64,000 nucleotides of DNA, from positions 8,182 through 72,181 of the forward strand of contig JAKLEM010000004.1 in NCBI GenBank assembly GCA_022711655.1, given 5' to 3'. This document shows, one piece after another, positions 47,676-58,143 of this stretch (positions are counted from its first letter, which is position 1; every line of letters starts with the position of its first letter). This DNA comes from Candidatus Auribacterota bacterium. GTDB taxonomy: Bacteria > Auribacterota > Ancaeobacteria > Ancaeobacterales > Ancaeobacteraceae. The position numbers and the translations under genes are program-made. The notes below the pieces were generated by a model. That model saw nothing but the letters and a program-made list of their open reading frames with translations, did not search any database and had not been told where the DNA came from.

Positions 47676-47738
47676 GCGTCTGAACCGCGGGTATCCATTC
47701 TCAGTTGAACTTAATTGACGACACGAAAAGGAGGTAAT

Positions 47739-49916
47739 ATGGGAAAACAGGGATTACTGGTGCGCTCATGTGCCGGTTTGCTAACAATCGTATATCTATT
47801 TGTCACTGCCGTTGCCGCGTATGCGGCAGCGCCCGAATGGCCCCGGCAGATCGCCGCGCAAGGGGCGCAGGTCATCGTCTATCAGCCGCAGCCCGAGTCG
47901 CTGAAAGGCGATCTCCTGACCGCGCGCGCAGCTGTGTCGGTGACGCAGGACGGCCAGGCAGAAGCCGTTTTCGGTACCGTGTGGTTCAACGCGCACCTGA
48001 CCACCGACCGCGATGCGCGGACCGTCACGATCGTCGAGCTTGAGGTCCCCAAGGTGAAATTCCCCAACGCGACGCCGGATCAGGAACAGAAGCTTGCAGA
48101 TATCTTGAAGAACAGCCTGTCGCAGGGGGAAATGACGATATCGCTCGACCGCCTCATGAGCAGTCTTGATGCAGCTCAGAAGGAGGAGGCCGCCGCGGCG
48201 CAGCTCAGGAACGACCCCCCGCAGATCATCTTCGCGAAAGTCCCGTCCGCCCTCGTCTCTGTCGACGGGGCGCCGAAGCTCCAGCCGGTGAAGAATTCGA
48301 AGATGATGCGCGTCATGAACACGCCCTTTACCATCATCCTTGACCCGGAGGCGAAGAAGTATTATCTCAAGGGCGGCGACAACTGGTATTCGGCCGCCGA
48401 GATGAAAGGGCCGTGGACGACGGAAGGAAATACGCCGAAGGCGGTCATCGACGCGGCTCCGGCCGGCGCCGGCGCGCAGGATGTGACGGCAGAAGAGCTT
48501 ACGGCGGAAAAACCGCTGAACATCATCGTCTCGACGCAGCCGGCGGAATTGATCGTCTCCGACGGCGATCCGCAGTATACGCCGGTCGACAACACGAACC
48601 TCCTCTTCATGAGCAACACCAAGAGCGACGTCTTCATGAGCATCGATTCCCAGCAGTATTATCTCCTCCTGTCGGGCCGCTGGTACACGAGCGCGGCGCT
48701 GTCCGGCCCCTGGGCGTTCGTTCCCGCGAACGGGCTGCCGGCCGATTTCGCGAACATCCCCGAAGGCTCGCCGAAGAGCGGGGTGCTCCCGTTCGTGGCC
48801 GGCACGACGCAGGCGAAAGAGGCGGTGCTCGACGCGAGCGTCCCGCAGACCGCGACGGTCAAGCGGACGGCTGGAAAAGACCTGAAGGTGACCTACGACG
48901 GCTCCCCGAAGTTCAAGGACGTGGACGGGGTGAGGGCAAGCTATGCGGTCAACACGGCCAGCGCCGTCCTGAAGATCGACGGAAAATATTACTGCTGTGA
49001 AAAAGCGGTATGGTATGAAGCGGCGGACCCGATGGGGCCGTGGACTGTCTGCGTCAAGGTGCCGAAAACGGTCTATGAGCTGCCGCCGAGCTGTCCGATA
49101 TATAACGTGAAGTACGTGTATGTCTACGATTCAACGCCTGACGTCGTTTATGTGGGTTATCTCCCCGGTTACGTCGGCTCGTATGTGTCCGGCGGCACGG
49201 TCGTCTACGGGACCGGTTACGTGTATGAGCCGTGGTGCGATACCGTCTATGTCCCGTATCCGGTGACGTACGGCTATAGCGTCGCGTACGACCCGGTCGC
49301 CTGCGCGTGGGGGGTCGGCCTGGGTTTCTGCGCAGGGTTCGCGATCGGGGCGTGGTGCGGCGGCGGTTGGGGATGGGGCGGCTGGGGCCCGCACGGATGG
49401 AACGGCAGCTATACAAAAAATGTTACCAATAACATCTATAACCACAGCAACAACAATAACGGGAACAACTACAATAATCGGCATGATCACAACAACAATA
49501 ATAATAACCACGGCGGCAACCATGGCGGGCACGGCGGCGGGCCGCATGGCGGGCCTATGCCCGGCCCCGATGGCATCCAGCGCGGCGACAGGGGAGACAG
49601 GCCTGCCGGCGATCTGAAGAACAATGTGTTTGCCGATAAGGACGGCAATGTCTTCAAACGCGACGGTGAAGGGTTGCAGAAATTCGATAAAAACGGCTGG
49701 TCGAACCATGTGCGCAATGCGGATGATGCGCAGAGATCAGGCTGGCAGCGCCATGATTTCGACGGGGCGCAGCGCGAAGGGTTCAACCGCGACCGCGGCG
49801 ATTTCAGGTCCGACCGGTTCCAGAACGCGAACAGGGGCGGATTCGACAGGGGGAACTTCAATAGAGGCAATTTCGGCGGATTCCATGGCGGCGGCGGACG
49901 TGGCGGACGGAGATAA
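47739..49916 (+). CDS. Secreted protein with W-x-GPW repeats and an Asn/His/Gly/Arg-rich low-complexity tail
   Basis: AGGAGG RBS; signal peptide ending AAYA-AAP. Repeats WYSAAEMKGPWT, WYTSAALSGPWAFV, WYEAADPMGPWTV. Tail NHSNNNNGNNYNNRHDHNNNNNNHGGNHGGHGGGPHGG ... GGGGRGGRR. Confidence 0.7.
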   Translation: MGKQGLLVRSCAGLLTIVYLFVTAVAAYAAAPEWPRQIAAQGAQVIVYQPQPESLKGDLLTARAAVSVTQDGQAEAVFGTVWFNAHLTTDRDARTVTIVELEVPKVKFPNATPDQEQKLADILKNSLSQGEMTISLDRLMSSLDAAQKEEAAAAQLRNDPPQIIFAKVPSALVSVDGAPKLQPVKNSKMMRVMNTPFTIILDPEAKKYYLKGGDNWYSAAEMKGPWTTEGNTPKAVIDAAPAGAGAQDVTAEELTAEKPLNIIVSTQPAELIVSDGDPQYTPVDNTNLLFMSNTKSDVFMSIDSQQYYLLLSGRWYTSAALSGPWAFVPANGLPADFANIPEGSPKSGVLPFVAGTTQAKEAVLDASVPQTATVKRTAGKDLKVTYDGSPKFKDVDGVRASYAVNTASAVLKIDGKYYCCEKAVWYEAADPMGPWTVCVKVPKTVYELPPSCPIYNVKYVYVYDSTPDVVYVGYLPGYVGSYVSGGTVVYGTGYVYEPWCDTVYVPYPVTYGYSVAYDPVACAWGVGLGFCAGFAIGAWCGGGWGWGGWGPHGWNGSYTKNVTNNIYNHSNNNNGNNYNNRHDHNNNNNNHGGNHGGHGGGPHGGPMPGPDGIQRGDRGDRPAGDLKNNVFADKDGNVFKRDGEGLQKFDKNGWSNHVRNADDAQRSGWQRHDFDGAQREGFNRDRGDFRSDRFQNANRGGFDRGNFNRGNFGGFHGGGGRGGRR

Positions 49917-50043
49917 GGCTGAAGCCTGTTTTGTTCGGTGGTAATTGATTATCCCGGTACAGATGATATAACGATGCGGTTGCTTGGATGAAACCGTCGT
50001 GCCGGTTGCGGCGTCTGTACTGTGCGTACAAGGAGAGGGTATC

Positions 50044-51519
50044 ATGAGAATGCGATCGTTATGTGCGGCGGTAATGATATGTGTGCTGACAGCATTTTCT
50101 TCGACCGCGTACGGTTTTATCTTTCCGGTCGGCGGCGACCAGGAATCACGTCCGCGAAGCGAGGTGAAATACGCGGTGACGCCCGACGGGTGGAAGATCG
50201 CGCTGGAGCATGTGCCTCCAGCCGGCGGCCAAAGCGGAAGGATCCCGGTGATCCTATGTCACGGCCTTGGCTATAACGGCGATTTCTGGATGCTCTCCAA
50301 CGAGGTGAACCTGCCCAGGCACCTCTCTCTCGAAGGGTATGACGTCTGGATCCTGTCTCTGAGGGGCGCAGGCAAGAGCACCAAGTGGGTCTATAAGCTC
50401 GCGGAGATGGGGCTTGAAGCGCCCGGCATCATCAGCAGCGTGAACAACGAGGACTATGTCGGCATGGGCATCAAAGGGCTCGGGATGCTGATGAAGCTCG
50501 GCCAAGCCAAGATGGAAAATGCCTCCGCGAACCCGAAATACATCAACTGGACGTTCGATGATTACGTGAAATACGATGTCCCGACGGCGATCGACTATGT
50601 CAAGAAGGCGACCGGGTCGCCGGAGGTCTTCTGGGTCGGGCACAGCATGGGAGGCAATGTCCTCCTGGCGCACCTCGCCAGGTATCGGCGCACCGACGTC
50701 CGCGGCGCGGTGACGGTCGGCTCGCAGCTGACGATGGTCAACGGCCACATCATATCGCAGTATATCAACACGCTCCAGTGGCTCCGCCTGTCCGAACTTG
50801 CCGGCGGCGTCGAAGCCGAGAAGGCCAAGCAGGCGGCGAAAGAGCAGGCGCGGGCGCTGCTCTTCTACGGGCCAAATATGGAAGGGGATGTCGTCGGGCG
50901 GCTCGAGAACGCCGGCACCGATACCCCTGCCGTCGGCGTCCTCGGACAGTATCTTGAGCTGGTCGCCTCGGGGCAGTTCAAGACGGCCGACAACAAATAC
51001 AATTATGCGCAGAATGCGAAAAACATATCGATCCCGCTGCTGGCGTGTGCCGGCAGCCAGGACTCTTTCGTCAACCCGAACGACCTGACGTTCCTGCGCG
51101 ATAACGTGTCGTCCGGCGATTTTCAGACCCTTCTGCTTGGCCCCTCGGCGGGGATGGATACGTTCGGACACAACGACGCCCTCATCAGCCGCCGCGCGTC
51201 GTCGCAGGTCTACCCGCTGATAACCGAATGGCTCGATAAGCACGCTGACGGGCGAATGCCCGTGCCGGCCATGAACGGATCCGAACGGCTGCATGATGTC
51301 GAGAGCGATGGATCGCTTCCGGCTTCGCAGCCGCAGGTGCCCGTTCCCGGCGGCATGAATATCCCCGGATCGCAACCCGTTCAAAGCCTGCCCCGCGCCC
51401 AGCGGGTGATAGTGGATGACGGCGCGAATATCGCGCGCGCGACACGCATCGTGCCCGCTGAGAGCGATGATGAGACTGAGGGCGCGAATCGGCCGCTGAG
51501 GGCGCTGCCCGTCGAATAG
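50044..51519 (+). CDS. Secreted alpha/beta-hydrolase (lipase/esterase-like) with a disordered C-terminal tail
   Basis: Signal peptide MRMRSLCAAVMICVLTAFSSTAYG; VILCHGLGYNG; nucleophile elbow GHSMGG. Confidence 0.8.
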   Translation: MRMRSLCAAVMICVLTAFSSTAYGFIFPVGGDQESRPRSEVKYAVTPDGWKIALEHVPPAGGQSGRIPVILCHGLGYNGDFWMLSNEVNLPRHLSLEGYDVWILSLRGAGKSTKWVYKLAEMGLEAPGIISSVNNEDYVGMGIKGLGMLMKLGQAKMENASANPKYINWTFDDYVKYDVPTAIDYVKKATGSPEVFWVGHSMGGNVLLAHLARYRRTDVRGAVTVGSQLTMVNGHIISQYINTLQWLRLSELAGGVEAEKAKQAAKEQARALLFYGPNMEGDVVGRLENAGTDTPAVGVLGQYLELVASGQFKTADNKYNYAQNAKNISIPLLACAGSQDSFVNPNDLTFLRDNVSSGDFQTLLLGPSAGMDTFGHNDALISRRASSQVYPLITEWLDKHADGRMPVPAMNGSERLHDVESDGSLPASQPQVPVPGGMNIPGSQPVQSLPRAQRVIVDDGANIARATRIVPAESDDETEGANRPLRALPVE

Positions 51520-51532
51520 TATTCAGGACGAG

Positions 51533-52549
51533 CTAGAGAGAGCTTTGCACCGTGCGCGAGATCCACTGGTCGATCATTTCTCCTGCGGAAAGCGGCGGCG
51601 GGACTGCCAGGTCTTCGGGGGGCACTTTCTTCAATTCTTTCGTGACCGTGTACAGCATGCCGTCGTATTCGTATGCCGTGGAGATGTTCCGGAACGGAGT
51701 CGGTTGTATGCGCATTGATACATTTCCTTCGGCGTTCTCTTCGGCTATGACCGCTTCGACGTAAGGCAGGGTGTCTTCGGTGATGAAGAGGGTTCCGCCG
51801 CTGCGCAGCAGCAGCAGGATCTTCGAGACGACCTTCCTCTTTGCGTTATCGATCTTCTTCGCGAGCGGCAGCCTCAAGTCAGAAAAAATCTCGTCGGTGG
51901 CGATCTCGTGATACGAGATCCCGTGTTTGCGGAAGCGCTCGAGGACAGAGTCCCTGAAATCAACGGATGCGAAGACGTTGAGGAACGTGATGTGATCGAT
52001 GCTGTTGGGAAGGAATCCGTGTTCTTCGTCGATCTCCTGCACGCTTATCCGCCGGTAATCGGGGCGACGGACAACTGCTTCATGTAATTTGCTTTCAGAG
52101 AGATAGGTATCGATTAAGTACTTGTGCATCTCGAGATAGTCCTGATTGATATCGGTGATGTAGGTCCGGTCCATAAAGAAAATATCGGGGTAGGTAAAGT
52201 CAGGCAGGGGGCCGGATCCGATGTGCAGGGATGTCTGTCCCGGCAGCGCATACTGCGCCATGGATTGCGCTCGTTGTATCATTCGATGGCGCTGCTTTAT
52301 ATCAGTCACGTTATCGACGACATGTTCGGGATCAAAGATCCATCGCTGACGATGCCGGCGGGATTTGTTTTCATATAGGTCCTGAAAGTCGGACTGTATA
52401 ACCTTCAGTTTTGACTGCGGCGCCAGAGAGCTTTTTCCGACATAGACACTGCTGACCTGCTCGCGCGCAGGTGGAGAGGCAGGGATAACGTATAGTGCAA
52501 TGGCCGCAACAACAACGAAATAACCCCTTTTTAAGAGTAGACAGTTCAT
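51533..52549 (-). CDS. Signal-anchored hypothetical protein with faint class-I methyltransferase-like motifs
   Basis: 338 aa; N-terminal hydrophobic anchor. LHIGSGPLPD and LLLLRSGGTLFI loosely resemble SAM-MTase motifs I and III. Visibly lower GC than the flanks. Confidence 0.5.
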   Translation of the reverse strand: MNCLLLKRGYFVVVAAIALYVIPASPPAREQVSSVYVGKSSLAPQSKLKVIQSDFQDLYENKSRRHRQRWIFDPEHVVDNVTDIKQRHRMIQRAQSMAQYALPGQTSLHIGSGPLPDFTYPDIFFMDRTYITDINQDYLEMHKYLIDTYLSESKLHEAVVRRPDYRRISVQEIDEEHGFLPNSIDHITFLNVFASVDFRDSVLERFRKHGISYHEIATDEIFSDLRLPLAKKIDNAKRKVVSKILLLLRSGGTLFITEDTLPYVEAVIAEENAEGNVSMRIQPTPFRNISTAYEYDGMLYTVTKELKKVPPEDLAVPPPLSAGEMIDQWISRTVQSSL

Positions 52550-52654
52550 TTAATCACCTTTTCTATTATAACCTATATTCGCGACGTTGTCAATTGTTGT
52601 GCAACATGTTGCTGTGTAGGTGCATATGAGTTTTATAAGCCAGGTAGATTTTTC

Positions 52655-52681
52655 TTGTCAGCGCGCCCGTTTTTCTATAAT
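52655..52681 (+). promoter_or_regulatory. Promoter candidate very close to the DUF2156 gene start
   Basis: TTGTCA, 15 nt, perfect TATAAT (52676-52681). The first ATG (52691) is only 10 nt downstream. Confidence 0.35.
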
Positions 52682-52690
52682 GTCCCCTGT

Positions 52691-53623
52691 ATGGATATGC
52701 CTGTATTCCCGCGGTCCCGGGACGTGGTCTTCGATGATAGAGAATCGTTCAATACGTTGTTCCGGCTCTATCCGCCCGTTATATCTGAGATGACGTTCAC
52801 AAACCTTTTTGCCTGGCGCGAGTTTTACCGGTTTAGCGTCGCCGAATATAGCGGGCATCTCCTGTTGGGATGCGGCGGGGCCGCGCCTGCTGTTTTTTTA
52901 CCCCCGGTCGGTCCCGATCCGGTATCTGTTATGATGGAATTGATCGCCGCGAGCGGCGCACAGTTTATCCGCGTGCCCGAGGTTGAGGCGCAGCGGTGCG
53001 CGACGGCTGACGGTGCCGTTATCGTTTCCGACAGAGACAATGCCGATTACCTCTACGATGCGGCGGAGCTGGCCTCTCTCAGCGGAGCGAAATACGACGG
53101 CAAGCGCAATCTCGTCAGGCGGTTCCAGTCCTCTTTCCCCTACGAGTATCACCCGTTGACCCCGTCGCTGATCGACCGGTGTCGCGACTTCGAACACCGT
53201 TGGTGTTCGGAAAAAGGGTGTGACCGCGATGCCGGCCTTTGCGCGGAGCGCCGCGCATTCGATACGATGCTTCCGCACTGCGGGTGCCTGCCGCTGCGCG
53301 GCGGTGCGATAACGATCGGCGGGGAGGTCAAAGCGGTCTGTATCGGGGAGCTGCTCAATCCGGAGACACTGGTCATCCATATCTTGAAAGCGATGAGGGA
53401 TTATCCGGGCCTCTATCAGGCTGTTTTTCATGATTTTTTAGTGAAAGAAGCGCGGGATGTGCGCTATATTAATATGGAGCAGGACCTTGGCGTCGATGGG
53501 TTGCGAAAGGCGAAGCTGTCCTATCACCCGGTCCGCATGGTCGACAAATATGCCGTATCGCGAAAAATGCGGGGCTCAGCGGAGCCGCAGCCTGCCGTCC
53601 TGCATGGGTGCTCACATGAATAG
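52691..53623 (+). CDS. DUF2156-like protein (aminoacyl-phosphatidylglycerol-synthase C-domain-like, GNAT-type fold)
   Basis: FTNLFAWREFYRFSVAEYSGHLLL and GAKYDGKRNLVRRF resemble DUF2156 / MprF C-terminal domain proteins; this is from memory only. Confidence 0.6.
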   Translation: MDMPVFPRSRDVVFDDRESFNTLFRLYPPVISEMTFTNLFAWREFYRFSVAEYSGHLLLGCGGAAPAVFLPPVGPDPVSVMMELIAASGAQFIRVPEVEAQRCATADGAVIVSDRDNADYLYDAAELASLSGAKYDGKRNLVRRFQSSFPYEYHPLTPSLIDRCRDFEHRWCSEKGCDRDAGLCAERRAFDTMLPHCGCLPLRGGAITIGGEVKAVCIGELLNPETLVIHILKAMRDYPGLYQAVFHDFLVKEARDVRYINMEQDLGVDGLRKAKLSYHPVRMVDKYAVSRKMRGSAEPQPAVLHGCSHE

Positions 53624-55385
53624 CAGATCCGATCGTCAGACGATACATCGCGGTGTTTGGACGCTGTGCATTGCGGCGGCGCTCCTTTCCGGATGCGTCA
53701 AGCCGGACGATAACGCCAACCGCCTGTTCGTCGAGGCCTCTCAGCTCGTCCGTGACGGCCAGGAGCTGGAGAAGAAGAGCTTCACGAGGGCGCTTGCTCT
53801 CTATCTCAGGTCGCAGGAAAAATTGCGTGAGATCCCCGCGCGGTTCCCGTCCTCGGAGATGGCGGTGAAGCTGGTCCAGGGGCAGCTTCGTGTCGGCTCA
53901 TACACCGTGTCGGAATTCGAGGATATCGTCCTCACTCAGGCGCGGATGAAGGCGAAGGCGGAGGCCGATCCGCTGTCGTGCGCGCTGCTCGTCTCCGATC
54001 GCGTCACCGACCCGTCGTCACGCGCCAAACTGCTCATCGACATCGCAAAGATCCATCTCCAGAAGAAGAATGCCGATTTCGGCGCAGAGCTTCTCATGCG
54101 TGCGCTCGGCACCGCCAACAGTATCAATGATACGTCGCTGAAGTCGGGGATCATAGCAGACATCTCGATGATGTTCGCGCAGTCCGGGAACTACGAGAAG
54201 GCGCTGGCGGTGACCAATTCAATTGAGGGCCCTTCGGACAAGACGGGCGCCCTAACGGCGATAGCGGACGCGTACGGCAAGATCGGTCAGGGCGAGAAGG
54301 CGGCCGAGATATTGTTTCGATCGCTCGTGACCGCTTCGACTATCAAAGACCCGTCGTTCAAATATGGCGCCCTGATTGATATCGCCCGCGCGTACGCAGC
54401 CATCGGCCGTTTTGAGCCGGCGATGCAGGTGGTTAAGATCATCGACAATCCCGCCGAGCGGACCACCGCCTATTTTGCAATCGCGAGGGCGCACGTCAGG
54501 CAGGGGAGCCCCGACAAGTGCTCCGAGATCCTGTCCAAGGCGTTCGTTGCGGCCAGTATGATCAAGGACCCCGCCCGCCGCGGATTGGCCCTGTCAGAGA
54601 TCGCGAAGATCTATAACGAGATCAGCCGGTTCGACCAGTCCCAGATGATCGCAAAGATCGTCTCCGATCCGGCGATGCAGACATCGCTTCTCGGCGAGAT
54701 AGCGGGGTGCCTCTATAAGAACGGCGACGGCGTTCGGGCGGAGGATATGCTCGATCAAGCCGTGCAGGGCGTCGCGGCCGTATCCGACCCCGAGGCGAAA
54801 GTGAAGCTTTTGTCTTTTCTTGCCCATCAGTGCCTGCAGGGCGGCGAATCAGACCGGGCGGTCGAGCTTATCCACCAGGCGTATGCGGTCGTCCTCATCA
54901 TCAACGACCCTGTGGTCAAGGCGAACCTGCTTACCGATATCGCCGGCCTGTACCGGGAGTCGCCACTGAGCGGGAAGACCTCCGATATCCTTGGGCAGGC
55001 GATGCAGGAGGTCTCGGGGGCGGTCAAGGACCCGTATGGGCGGATACAGCTGCTGGAAAAGATCGGCGATCTCTACCGGGTGATCGGCAAGAATGACAAG
55101 GCGGCGCAGATCTTTGCCGAGGAGGTGCAGGTCGCCAACGGCCTCACGGACCCGTCGCATCGTGTTAGCGTCTATCTCGAGATCGCGGCACGCTACGACG
55201 AGATGGAGCTCAAGAAAGAGCTGCTTGGCGTCATTTCGGAAGCGCTGCGCGCCGCCGCATTGATGAACGATTATTCATACAAGACCAGGACGCTTGTCGA
55301 TATCGGTGAGCGGTATGCCCAAAAGGACATGCCGGTTAATGACGACTCACGCGCCGTTCTCCACGATATCATCTGCGGGTTGTGA
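53616..55385 (+). CDS. Lipoprotein with about 12 alpha-solenoid repeats (33-41 aa units)
   Basis: ATG 53616 overlaps the upstream stop by 8 nt. Lipobox LLSGC. Repeated unit I-x-DP-x2-K-x3-L-x2-IA-x2-Y-x3-G. Confidence 0.7.
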   Translation: MNSRSDRQTIHRGVWTLCIAAALLSGCVKPDDNANRLFVEASQLVRDGQELEKKSFTRALALYLRSQEKLREIPARFPSSEMAVKLVQGQLRVGSYTVSEFEDIVLTQARMKAKAEADPLSCALLVSDRVTDPSSRAKLLIDIAKIHLQKKNADFGAELLMRALGTANSINDTSLKSGIIADISMMFAQSGNYEKALAVTNSIEGPSDKTGALTAIADAYGKIGQGEKAAEILFRSLVTASTIKDPSFKYGALIDIARAYAAIGRFEPAMQVVKIIDNPAERTTAYFAIARAHVRQGSPDKCSEILSKAFVAASMIKDPARRGLALSEIAKIYNEISRFDQSQMIAKIVSDPAMQTSLLGEIAGCLYKNGDGVRAEDMLDQAVQGVAAVSDPEAKVKLLSFLAHQCLQGGESDRAVELIHQAYAVVLIINDPVVKANLLTDIAGLYRESPLSGKTSDILGQAMQEVSGAVKDPYGRIQLLEKIGDLYRVIGKNDKAAQIFAEEVQVANGLTDPSHRVSVYLEIAARYDEMELKKELLGVISEALRAAALMNDYSYKTRTLVDIGERYAQKDMPVNDDSRAVLHDIICGL

Positions 55386-55399
55386 GGGAGGGGACGATC

Positions 55400-57055
55400 A
55401 TGAAAAAGATTTTCTGCTTATGCGTTGCAGCGGCCGTTGCGATAGGCTCGCAGCTGGCCTGGGGTGGCGAACCGAACGTCGACGAACAGGCAAACGTGCT
55501 TTTCATCGAAGCTGTGGAGCATGTCGGGGGTGCACAGAAGGCCGAGCAGGGAGAGGATATGTCGCAGGCCTACAAACTATACAAGAAGGCCCTGGAGAAG
55601 CTGAATACTATCATGGACCGTTATCCGTCGTCGCAGATGGCTGCGCAGCTCTCCGAAGGCGATGTGCGTGTCGGGCCGTATACGATCGCCGAGATCGAAA
55701 AGTCGGTCTTGCCGAGGCTCAAGAAAACATGTGAATCCGAGAGCGACATGCTTGCCGGCGCCCTTGTTATGTCTGACGGGTTGGCCGAACAGCAGCAGAA
55801 AGCGATGGTCCTCAACGAAATAGCGGCGGGGTTCATCGCGCGCAAGGAAGCCGCTGCCGCAGACGAGGCATTGTCCGCGCTCCGGCAGTCGGCCGAGCAG
55901 ATCGAGAACGCAGTGATCTCTTCCAGGGTGCTGCTGGCGGCGGCAGACAAAGAAATGCTTGCCGGCCGCAGGGAACAGGCCGGAGCGCTGCTTAACGCGG
56001 CGATGCGGCGCGCCTCCTCTGTGGAGGAAGAAGACGGAAAGCTCAAACTTTTGCTCGATATAGCGATGAATATGGCCGCCGCGGGATTCTACGACCAGGC
56101 GTTCTCCGTCGCGAATATGATCGCTCACCCTTCGGCGCGCGCGGTGATCCTTCTGAATATCGCGAGGCAGCTCGGTGCTGCCGGTAAGCGCGATGAGATG
56201 AAGCGGACTATGGAAGACGCTTACCGGTCGGTGACGTCGATGCAGGATTATTTTCAGCAGGCGGTGGCGCTGTGTGAACTTGCGGATCTCTATATCTCGA
56301 TCGGCGACCTTAAAACGGCCCAGGCGGTCGTCGGCAGCGCCGCGGTATTGTCCGAACAGATGACCCTCAACGAAGTAAAGGCCTCGATACTGCCGGACCT
56401 GGCCGTCCGCTATGCGAAGCTGGGGCAGCCGGCGGAAGCGATGTCGTTGATCCTGAAGGCATATCAGATGGCAAAAGGGATCAAGGACAGCCGTCTGCGT
56501 ATGGAGCTCGGCCTCAAGATCGCGCAGGCATACGTCGATTCAAAGAACGGAGCGGAAGCCGAGAAGCTGCTCGCCAATCTGCGTTCTGACGCGGCGCATC
56601 TTGCGGATCTGCAGTTCCAGGCCCAGGCGCTCGCGGAGATCGCCGATACGCACGGCAAGATGAAGCAGTACGGGCAGTCGCTAGCCGTCATTAAGGAGAT
56701 AAAAGATCCGCAGATCGCGGTGATCGCGTATCTCAGCCTGGCGGACCTGATCAAGAGCAGCGGCTCGTCCCAGGACATCGTTCCCCTGATCGCGGATGCA
56801 TCCGCCGCAGCCCGGCAGATCGGGGACGGTAACTCGCGGGACGATGCGTTTTGCAGGATCGCCTTCCGCTATGCGGATGAGGGTAAGTTCAACGAGGCGC
56901 TGCAGCACGTCGCGCAGACGGCTAACGCCGGGATCCGCGCATTTGCGTTGGCGCACACGGGCGCGGTCGCCGCAAAGGCACAGTACGCGAGCACGCCGGA
57001 AGATCGGGCGATGATCCGGGATATTATGAAGAGTCAGCAGGTGCGGCAGAAATAA
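55400..57055 (+). CDS. Secreted alpha-solenoid repeat protein, paralog of the upstream gene
   Basis: Signal peptide MKKIFCLCVAAAVAIGSQLAWG. Shares the N-module (RYPSSQMAAQLSEGDVRVGPYTIAEIE vs RFPSSEMAVKLVQGQLRVGSYTVSEFE) and the repeat pattern. Confidence 0.7.
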   Translation: MKKIFCLCVAAAVAIGSQLAWGGEPNVDEQANVLFIEAVEHVGGAQKAEQGEDMSQAYKLYKKALEKLNTIMDRYPSSQMAAQLSEGDVRVGPYTIAEIEKSVLPRLKKTCESESDMLAGALVMSDGLAEQQQKAMVLNEIAAGFIARKEAAAADEALSALRQSAEQIENAVISSRVLLAAADKEMLAGRREQAGALLNAAMRRASSVEEEDGKLKLLLDIAMNMAAAGFYDQAFSVANMIAHPSARAVILLNIARQLGAAGKRDEMKRTMEDAYRSVTSMQDYFQQAVALCELADLYISIGDLKTAQAVVGSAAVLSEQMTLNEVKASILPDLAVRYAKLGQPAEAMSLILKAYQMAKGIKDSRLRMELGLKIAQAYVDSKNGAEAEKLLANLRSDAAHLADLQFQAQALAEIADTHGKMKQYGQSLAVIKEIKDPQIAVIAYLSLADLIKSSGSSQDIVPLIADASAAARQIGDGNSRDDAFCRIAFRYADEGKFNEALQHVAQTANAGIRAFALAHTGAVAAKAQYASTPEDRAMIRDIMKSQQVRQK

Positions 57056-57087
57056 TCAGCGGCGCATCCGGCAGAGAGGCAGGCTTC

Positions 57088-58143
57088 ATGGTCCACGATT
57101 TTATGCAGAAAATCTGTGCGGGGAACCGCATCGCCGATTATACGATCGCCCTGCTGATATTCTGCACGTTCTTTCTGGCGGTGCGTTTTTTCACCCGGGT
57201 GATCCTGTCCCGCCTCAGCGCCAGGGCGCAGCGCTCGCCGGCGCGCATCGATAATTTCCTGATCCTGCTTTTCCAGAAGAACGCGCCGCCCCTGCTCTAC
57301 TTTGTCGCGTTCTTTATCGCCGTTCAGACGCTTGCGATGGCGCCGTTTGTCGCTAGGACGGTCAATGTTCTCGGGCTGACCCTCGTATCCGTCGTTATCA
57401 TCAGGTCTTTGATCGCCATCGCCGGCTATTCGATCGCTGCCTATGTGGCGCAGAAAGGCGCCGGCGCGGAAAAACACCAGAGCATCGCGGGTATCATGAC
57501 GATGGTCAAGATGCTCGTGTGGGGGCTGGGTGCCGTTTTCGTCCTCGACAACCTCGGGTTCAAGATCTCGGCGGTTGTCACCGGCCTGGGGATCGGCGGC
57601 GTCGCCGTCGCCTTCGCGTCTCAGGCGATCCTGGGAGACCTTTTCAGCTACTTCGCGATATTTTTCGACAGGCCGTTCGAGGCAGGCGATTATATAGTCG
57701 TTGGCGACCAATCGGGGACGGTTCAGAAGATCGGACTTAAAACGACCCGCATTGCCAGCCTGTGGGGGGAGCAGATCGTTTTCTCCAACACTGACCTGAC
57801 AAAGTCGTTCATCCGGAATTACAAGAAGATGGAGCGCAGGCGGGTGTGCTTTAAGTTTGGGGTGGTCTACCAGACGTCGGCCGAAGTGCTGAAGAAAATA
57901 CCGGATACGGTGGGCGAAATCATCCGGGCGATCCCTATGACGACGCTTGACCGCGTGCATTTCACGTCGTTCGCTGACTCGTCTCTTCTCTTCGAGGTTG
58001 TCTATTATGTGACAGGGAACGATTACAATTCTTTTATGGATATCCAGCAGGAGATCAATCTGAAGGTCAAGGAATCGTTCGAGAAATGCGGGATCGAGTT
58101 TGCCTACCCGACGCAGAAGATATACGTTGCGAAAGAGACCTGA
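57088..58143 (+). CDS. Mechanosensitive ion channel, MscS family
   Basis: Pore/beta-domain signature GLGIGGVAVAFASQAILGDLFS...FEAGDYIVVGDQSGTVQKIGLKTTRI. Confidence 0.9.
   Translation: MVHDFMQKICAGNRIADYTIALLIFCTFFLAVRFFTRVILSRLSARAQRSPARIDNFLILLFQKNAPPLLYFVAFFIAVQTLAMAPFVARTVNVLGLTLVSVVIIRSLIAIAGYSIAAYVAQKGAGAEKHQSIAGIMTMVKMLVWGLGAVFVLDNLGFKISAVVTGLGIGGVAVAFASQAILGDLFSYFAIFFDRPFEAGDYIVVGDQSGTVQKIGLKTTRIASLWGEQIVFSNTDLTKSFIRNYKKMERRRVCFKFGVVYQTSAEVLKKIPDTVGEIIRAIPMTTLDRVHFTSFADSSLLFEVVYYVTGNDYNSFMDIQQEINLKVKESFEKCGIEFAYPTQKIYVAKET

Follow-up and report, generated by a model that had tools for sequence, protein, structure and literature searches.

Do four tightly packed genes that combine a putative aminoacyl transferase, two repeat proteins, and a mechanosensitive channel form a dedicated envelope system, or do they share no more than a stretch of chromosome? 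The question is raised by positions 52691 to 58143 of a 64,000-nt stretch of DNA (the whole stretch analyzed here, hereafter the window) from a Candidatus Auribacterota bacterium (GenBank assembly GCA_022711655.1, contig JAKLEM010000004.1, positions 8,182 to 72,181 of the forward strand). The source is a 1.62-Mb metagenome-assembled genome (MAG) of 56 contigs, 75% complete, which shares its GTDB phylum with Candidatus Theseobacter exili (NCBI: Ca. Auribacterota, Planctomycetes-Verrucomicrobia-Chlamydiae (PVC) group). An original prediction, made from the sequence alone, read the block as an apparent operon of a DUF2156 protein, two repeat-protein paralogs (here TPR1 and TPR2), and an MscS channel, and proposed that the four products act together as an envelope-remodelling or stress module. 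We find that the gene identities stand and that co-transcription is plausible, given that the genes overlap or lie close together and that one promoter-like site stands ahead of them, while the proposed module is unsupported.

The block is probably a lineage-specific string of four genes, likely to be one transcription unit, and not a dedicated conserved system. Co-transcription in a compact genome does not in itself point to a shared mechanism, every comparative test of linkage came out negative, and the locus offers a worked example of tight spacing in a compact genome as weak evidence for shared function. When we searched the literature for a system pairing an MprF-type domain with a mechanosensitive channel, none turned up; the novelty of the locus is limited to further members of known families, and our data give no grounds to propose a new system.

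Gene layout and transcription

The four genes follow one another on the plus strand as DUF2156 (52691 to 53623; ATG at 52691, stop codon at 53621 to 53623, 310 aa), TPR1 (53616 to 55385; ATG at 53616, 589 aa), TPR2 (55400 to 57055; ATG at 55400, 551 aa), and MscS (57088 to 58143; ATG at 57088, 351 aa). Both the open reading frame (ORF) list and the sequence agree with the earlier description of four same-strand genes with tiny gaps or overlaps, the three junctions being an 8-nt overlap, a 14-nt gap, and a 32-nt gap. The overlap of the DUF2156 stop with the TPR1 start reads ATGAATAG, and TPR1 has no ribosome-binding site of its own, while purine-rich sites precede TPR2 and MscS, that of TPR2 being a GGGAGGGG Shine-Dalgarno sequence within the 14-nt gap. 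A separate metagenome contig from the Joint Genome Institute (JGI; 57.5 kb) matches the window at 100% identity over 17.8 kb, and the JGI gene calls on it have the same four boundaries.

A promoter-like site (TTGTCA, 15 nt, TATAAT; 52655 to 52681, plus strand), visible directly in the sequence and only predicted to function, ends 10 nt upstream of the DUF2156 ATG, so that a transcript from it would have a very short leader or none. The consensus promoter scan, which demands a spacer of 16 to 18 nt, therefore missed this site. Consensus scanning of the four-gene block itself gave no convincing internal promoter or terminator sites. Bacterial genes on one strand are usually co-transcribed when less than about 40 nt separates them, and we consider it quite probable, on the spacing of the ORFs, that the four genes are transcribed together. 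The spacing is not remarkable by itself, however, because gaps of 35 nt or less separate 12 of the 27 same-strand adjacent pairs in the window (44%, from crude ORF calls), and a run of three tight junctions would arise by chance in roughly 9% of cases.

Conservation of the neighborhood

The original prediction had named the absence of this neighborhood from all relatives as the outcome that would count against it, and conservation of the four-family neighborhood was indeed absent in every data set examined. The comparison set comprised 79 genomes of the phylum, one of the same family and two of the same order, with DUF2156 searched in 40 relatives. The arrangement recurred at none of approximately 95 DUF2156 loci, 15 repeat-family loci, and eight MscS-ortholog loci.

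Homologues of the DUF2156 protein were present in 12 of the 40 relatives, at identities of at most 39%, and none of the 11 in-phylum loci examined (0/11) had an adjoining TPR1/2 homologue. The closest homologues (46 to 48% identity), mostly labelled Omnitrophica or Omnitrophota, lie in unrelated gene contexts, and neither an MscS gene nor a TPR1/2 homologue was found nearby in 83 loci spanning 617 kb (80 metagenome loci and three loci of the closest homologues). The repeat family occurs in 10 of the 79 phylum genomes besides the window's own, with no DUF2156 or MscS gene near its members in these 10 in-phylum loci or in five metagenome loci that carry more distant members; a contig scan with a three-sequence alignment of the family returned only the locus of Ca. 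Theseobacter exili, which was already known. No other genome of the phylum was found to hold DUF2156 and the repeat family together (40 relatives for the former, 79 genomes for the latter). Full-length MscS orthologs (40 to 51% identity) were recovered from 12 other genomes of the phylum, and at the eight loci inspected, neither DUF2156 nor the repeat family stood beside them; the genes upstream encode hybrid histidine kinases, a BcrAD-type ATPase, a ZIP transporter, and a rubrerythrin-like protein.

The same-family genome (G001) places the break precisely. Its V-ATPase genes and exported alpha/beta hydrolase are syntenic with the window at 65 to 79% identity (window 49984 to 52549 versus locus L076), synteny stops right after the hydrolase, and the window from 51533 to its end has no counterpart in that G001 region. 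DUF2156, the repeat family, an MscS ortholog, and DUF2207 (the family of the downstream neighbor) were all not found in G001. This genome is also without the 733-aa gene at 47715 to 49916. The hydrolase was considered as a partner enzyme acting on aminoacyl-phosphatidylglycerol and rejected, as it is kept at 65 to 70% identity in relatives that have no DUF2156 and an opposite-strand gene intervenes.

Separate histories of the genes

In a maximum-likelihood tree, the DUF2156 protein of the window falls in a clade with Omnitrophota-labelled proteins (support 99/95), and all 11 in-phylum homologues lie outside that clade. The best relatives of the MscS channel are in-phylum, at up to 51% identity. 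Because the former groups with Omnitrophota-labelled proteins and the latter has its orthologs within the phylum, the parts of the block have different histories, and the tree suggests that the DUF2156 gene was laterally acquired, or at least has a history unlike that of MscS.

The tree-nearest DUF2156 protein (P0014, 47% identity) is encoded on an Omnitrophota-labelled contig of 1.62 Mb (L028) from JGI sample 3300010429, the same metagenome sample as the window organism. Gene exchange among lineages living in the same place would fit this co-occurrence.

The DUF2156 protein

Assignment of the first gene to DUF2156 was correct: the PF09924 (LPG_synthase_C) profile matches over its positions 2 to 297 of 298 with 142.3 bits (cut-off 27.5; E = 2.2e-41), and a six-frame search of the genome shows this gene to be its sole PF09924 match. 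The protein is freestanding at 310 aa, has no hydrophobic or transmembrane (TM) segment, and aligns with its homologues from residue 1. Its closest PDB match is 2HQY, a hypothetical protein of B. thetaiotaomicron (E = 3.8e-45, residues 10 to 290), and no solved MprF chain was matched by the sequence at E ≤ 0.01. Judged by sequence, it is thus a soluble DUF2156 protein of the 2HQY type and not an MprF, and homology to 2HQY over residues 10 to 290 implies a predicted tandem GNAT fold.

The middle of the protein carries a K/R-rich motif, KYDGKRNLVRRF, at residues 134 to 145 (A-K-Y-D-G-K-R-N-L-V-R-R-F at 133 to 145), in which D136, K138, R139, and N140 are invariant across 15 homologues. In the DUF2156 family, the use of aminoacyl-tRNA requires a positively charged helix that links one GNAT domain to the other (PMC8913301), and the motif, going by its position only, would correspond to this alpha(+) helix. 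DUF2156 sequences do not reveal substrate specificity (PMC8913301); we infer that the protein is a soluble aminoacyl-tRNA-dependent transferase whose acceptor would be a lipid or else some small molecule.

Several known proteins offer points of comparison. Like 2HQY, the protein consists of a single PF09924 domain of ~300 aa without a flippase or aminoacyl-tRNA synthetase fusion, though the bacterial 2HQY-type clade has no known activity. The fungal ergosteryl-3beta-O-glycine synthase ErgS (PMC8913301) is likewise a freestanding PF09924 domain of ~300 aa with no fusion, but its substrate is ergosterol, a sterol not known to be produced by these bacteria. MprF and the aminoacyl-phosphatidylglycerol synthases (LysPGS, AlaPGS), as well as mycobacterial LysX, belong to the same catalytic family (PF09924); unlike these, however, the window protein has neither an N-terminal integral-membrane flippase domain nor a fused lysyl-tRNA synthetase, and its gene neighborhood is different. 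The freestanding 2HQY-type clade could be a subject of study for itself: a word-indexed search gave 1528 proteins at E ≤ 1e-10, Omnitrophota-labelled genomes are rich in them, and in bacteria the clade has no known substrate, whereas the fungal counterparts aminoacylate sterols.

Among the metagenome DUF2156 loci (L079 to L158), response-regulator receiver genes stand one to three genes upstream in 28 of 79, and the gene directly downstream is of the MatE family at 21 loci and of the CMD family at another 21. Rubrerythrin adjoins DUF2156 in two long Omnitrophota contigs, and these neighbors, which recur at the level of lineages, show no obvious functional pattern.

The repeat proteins

TPR1 and TPR2 are paralogs with 25% identity over their full length (BLASTP, E = 3e-34), and a lipobox in the first agrees with the earlier view that it is lipid-anchored. 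TPR1 has the signal peptide of a lipoprotein, with the lipobox LLSG-C27 (L-S-G-C27 after a hydrophobic stretch), which fits the pattern [LVI][ASTVI][GAS]C, and at the same alignment position homologues in three genomes (G036, G011, and G027) show G-C or S-C. In TPR2, a serine replaces the lipobox cysteine (IGS, versus SGC or LGC in every other aligned member), and a 7-residue insertion creates a signal-peptidase-I-type end behind a single hydrophobic N-terminal segment (residues 4 to 22). Accordingly, TPR2 would be soluble and either reside in the periplasm or be secreted, the tandem duplicate having apparently switched from a lipid-anchored to a soluble form.

Repeat parsing of TPR1 gives an N-terminal module of ~100 aa and, after it, 12 repeats that are 32 to 41 aa long and have two helices each, and the signature [IV]xDPxxKxxxLxxIAxxY is common to TPR1 and TPR2, in roughly 12 repeats. 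Against Pfam, TPR1 scores 53 bits with TPR_12 (cut-off 30.1), while TPR2 stays below the TPR cut-offs (24.3 bits); for the conserved N-terminal module, no Pfam family was matched beyond a sub-threshold MIT match on TPR2. An AlphaFold2 model of TPR1 from a 31-sequence alignment (predicted local distance difference test (pLDDT) 94.5, predicted TM-score (pTM) 0.86) is all helical save one short beta hairpin, and its N-terminal module is made of helices at residues 30 to 51, 56 to 76, and 81 to 87, the beta hairpin at ~92 to 97, and helices at 98 to 117 and 119 to 127; in a run from the single sequence, this module stayed at pLDDT < 50. The model forms a superhelix of helix-turn-helix repeats, so that a TPR-like fold is predicted, and Foldseek with the whole model returned TPR superhelices (LGN/Pins, APC/C) at probability 1.0, with TM-scores of only 0.25 to 0.38.

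The family as a whole was revealed by an exhaustive HMMER search with a profile of the N-terminal module against 1.84 billion representatives, which gave 287 clusters at E ≤ 1e-10, or 777 with the threshold relaxed to 1e-3 (clustering at 50% identity); in word-indexed searches with TPR1 or with the 31-sequence family alignment, words common to TPR proteins in general dominated, and few true members emerged. The module is nearly always N-terminal, in proteins of 450 to 1300 aa, and no characterized member of the family was found in our searches. Periplasmic TPR lipoproteins that serve as scaffolds include BamD, LpoA, and PilF, and TPR1 resembles these in that its lipobox signal peptide leads into a superhelix of the TPR-like, all-helical kind; however, TPR1 and TPR2 show no detected sequence relationship to them and have their own 32- to 41-aa repeat unit with a DP motif. 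This uncharacterized repeat-lipoprotein family, which numbers no fewer than 287 clusters (50% identity) and now has a confident structural model, could likewise be studied for itself.

Adjacent copies of the family were seen elsewhere as well, namely two genes in G055 (L176, 2725 to 7183) and genes of 858 and 277 aa on a metagenome contig (L180, 6001 to 9395), and the family seems prone to local duplication.

The MscS channel

The fourth gene encodes an MscS channel, as had been proposed: the Pfam domains for the TM2/3 pore helices (PF21088), the beta domain (PF00924), and the C-terminal domain (PF21082) score 33.9, 56.0, and 48.7 bits, respectively, each exceeding its cut-off. NCBIfam MscS models match at 1e-23 to 4e-17, all far under the equivalog or subfamily cut-offs. 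The protein has five hydrophobic segments (22 to 40, 70 to 88, 94 to 112, 135 to 153, and 160 to 178), its basic loops are predicted to be cytoplasmic, and in this topology, the periplasmic loops have ~4 to 7 residues each. The E. coli channel YnaI has five TM segments, the number predicted here, and the three MscS Pfam domains are all shared with E. coli MscS and YnaI, although the window channel is only distantly similar to them in sequence. No second MscS-family gene was found in the MAG, which is 75% complete.

The earlier suggestion that the repeat proteins contact the periplasmic loops of the channel is structurally unlikely, because loops of this length leave it a near-absent periplasmic surface. 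To our knowledge, no MscS channel has been reported to require a lipoprotein partner.

Possible functioning of the block and alternative explanations

Read as a lineage-specific string, the block would have been united in this lineage from genes of separate history. Transcription would start at the promoter just upstream of DUF2156 and run through the four genes as one unit, with the first two genes translationally coupled via their 8-nt overlap. The DUF2156 product may move an amino acid from a charged tRNA onto a lipid or small-molecule acceptor. TPR1 and TPR2 would represent a tandem duplicate within an exported repeat-lipoprotein family of TPR-like superhelices, most likely serving as periplasmic protein-binding scaffolds, one copy lipid-anchored and the other without an anchor, and MscS would be the ordinary osmotic safety valve of the genome.

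We acknowledge that several observations weigh against this reading. Junctions of this kind (an 8-nt start/stop overlap, then 14 and 32 nt) are what a functional operon might show, and each of the four products is envelope-related or could act on the membrane. Further, one relative (G035) has a DUF2156 gene (~30% identity) 94 nt from an MscS gene, in convergent orientation (L021, 1932 to 4628), and in G010, whose MscS ortholog is the closest (51% identity), the gene of an exported TPR_12 protein lies upstream of the channel gene. Finally, the lineage is poorly sampled, the closest comparison genomes being of the same family (one) or the same order (two) and none of the same genus.

The same observations, namely the tight coupling of four genes, the membrane or envelope association of all their products, and the two partial look-alikes in G035 and G010, speak for the envelope-remodelling or stress module, in which DUF2156 would aminoacylate a membrane lipid, the periplasmic repeat proteins would sense or scaffold, and MscS gating would be tuned by, or coordinated with, the change in lipids. 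Textbook knowledge adds some appeal, as MprF-type lipid aminoacylation alters membrane surface charge and the gating of MscS is lipid-sensitive. However, each look-alike weakens on inspection. The G035 pair is the sole other DUF2156/MscS adjacency among the ~95 DUF2156 loci, and about one such case is expected by chance, at ~1% per locus (our own estimate, from ~12 neighboring genes in ~6 kb and two to three MscS genes per ~2500 genes); moreover, its convergent partner encodes a 561-aa protein in which an MscS channel is joined to a cyclic-nucleotide-binding domain (MscS-cNMP), a different subfamily from the window channel. The TPR_12 protein of G010 belongs to an unrelated TPR family and is not homologous to TPR1 or TPR2. 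With the neighborhood conserved at none of the loci of the three families, components that differ in phylogenetic affinity, and periplasmic loops too short to offer a partner much to hold, we regard the module as unlikely.

A narrower proposal, which we rate as rather more doubtful, takes DUF2156 and TPR1 alone as a functional pair, the product of the former being needed for or handled by the lipoprotein, with TPR2 as a duplicate and MscS as a passenger. It draws on the 8-nt overlap and the lack of a separate Shine-Dalgarno sequence for TPR1, which together imply coupled translation, and on two genomes of one genus (G011 and G027) in which the next gene after the lipoprotein homologue, also same-strand, is one for a YbaK-type aminoacyl-tRNA editing domain (PF04073, 1.7e-26; L065, 1975 to 2478 in G011 and L066, 8247 to 8771 in G027), a faint second link of the repeat family to aminoacyl-tRNA chemistry. 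We rejected the YbaK-like neighbor as such a link, as it is absent from the third genome of the genus and from all other loci. The pair itself is opposed by the lack of any other phylum genome with both families, by a count of zero TPR-family genes beside the ~95 DUF2156 genes, and by the predicted locations of the two proteins on opposite sides of the inner membrane.

Less probable again is a young functional innovation, in which a laterally acquired, soluble DUF2156 enzyme would make an aminoacylated membrane lipid or other envelope conjugate, with the duplicated lipoprotein scaffold and MscS co-regulated for osmotic or envelope stress; if true, it would tie tRNA-dependent lipid modification to mechanosensation. 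That the operon is an artefact of chimeric assembly or mis-called ORFs is hardly credible, since the draft state of the genome (75% complete, 56 contigs) and a dip in GC content to 0.51 to 0.54 at 52.0 to 53.5 kb are outweighed by the separate JGI contig with its 17.8 kb of identical sequence and same gene calls, by strong family or homologue support for all four ORFs, and by a third-codon-position GC content (GC3; 0.68 to 0.78) close to that of the neighboring genes.

Flanking genes

PADLOC gave no defence-system signal apart from generic TPR matches, and no tRNA or Rfam element was found near the DUF2156 gene. Upstream, a 141-nt AT-rich divergent intergenic region separates DUF2156 from an opposite-strand gene (51533 to 52593 together with its promoter consensus) for a 338-aa protein with an N-terminal hydrophobic anchor and a comparatively low GC content (0.526, GC3 0.655), which had no match in Pfam or NCBIfam; the promoter scan placed a perfect TTGACA-17-TATAAT on the minus strand at 52593 to 52565, facing this gene. 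Downstream, a convergent DUF2207 gene ends 19 nt past the MscS stop codon, and DUF2207 and lemA are paired there.

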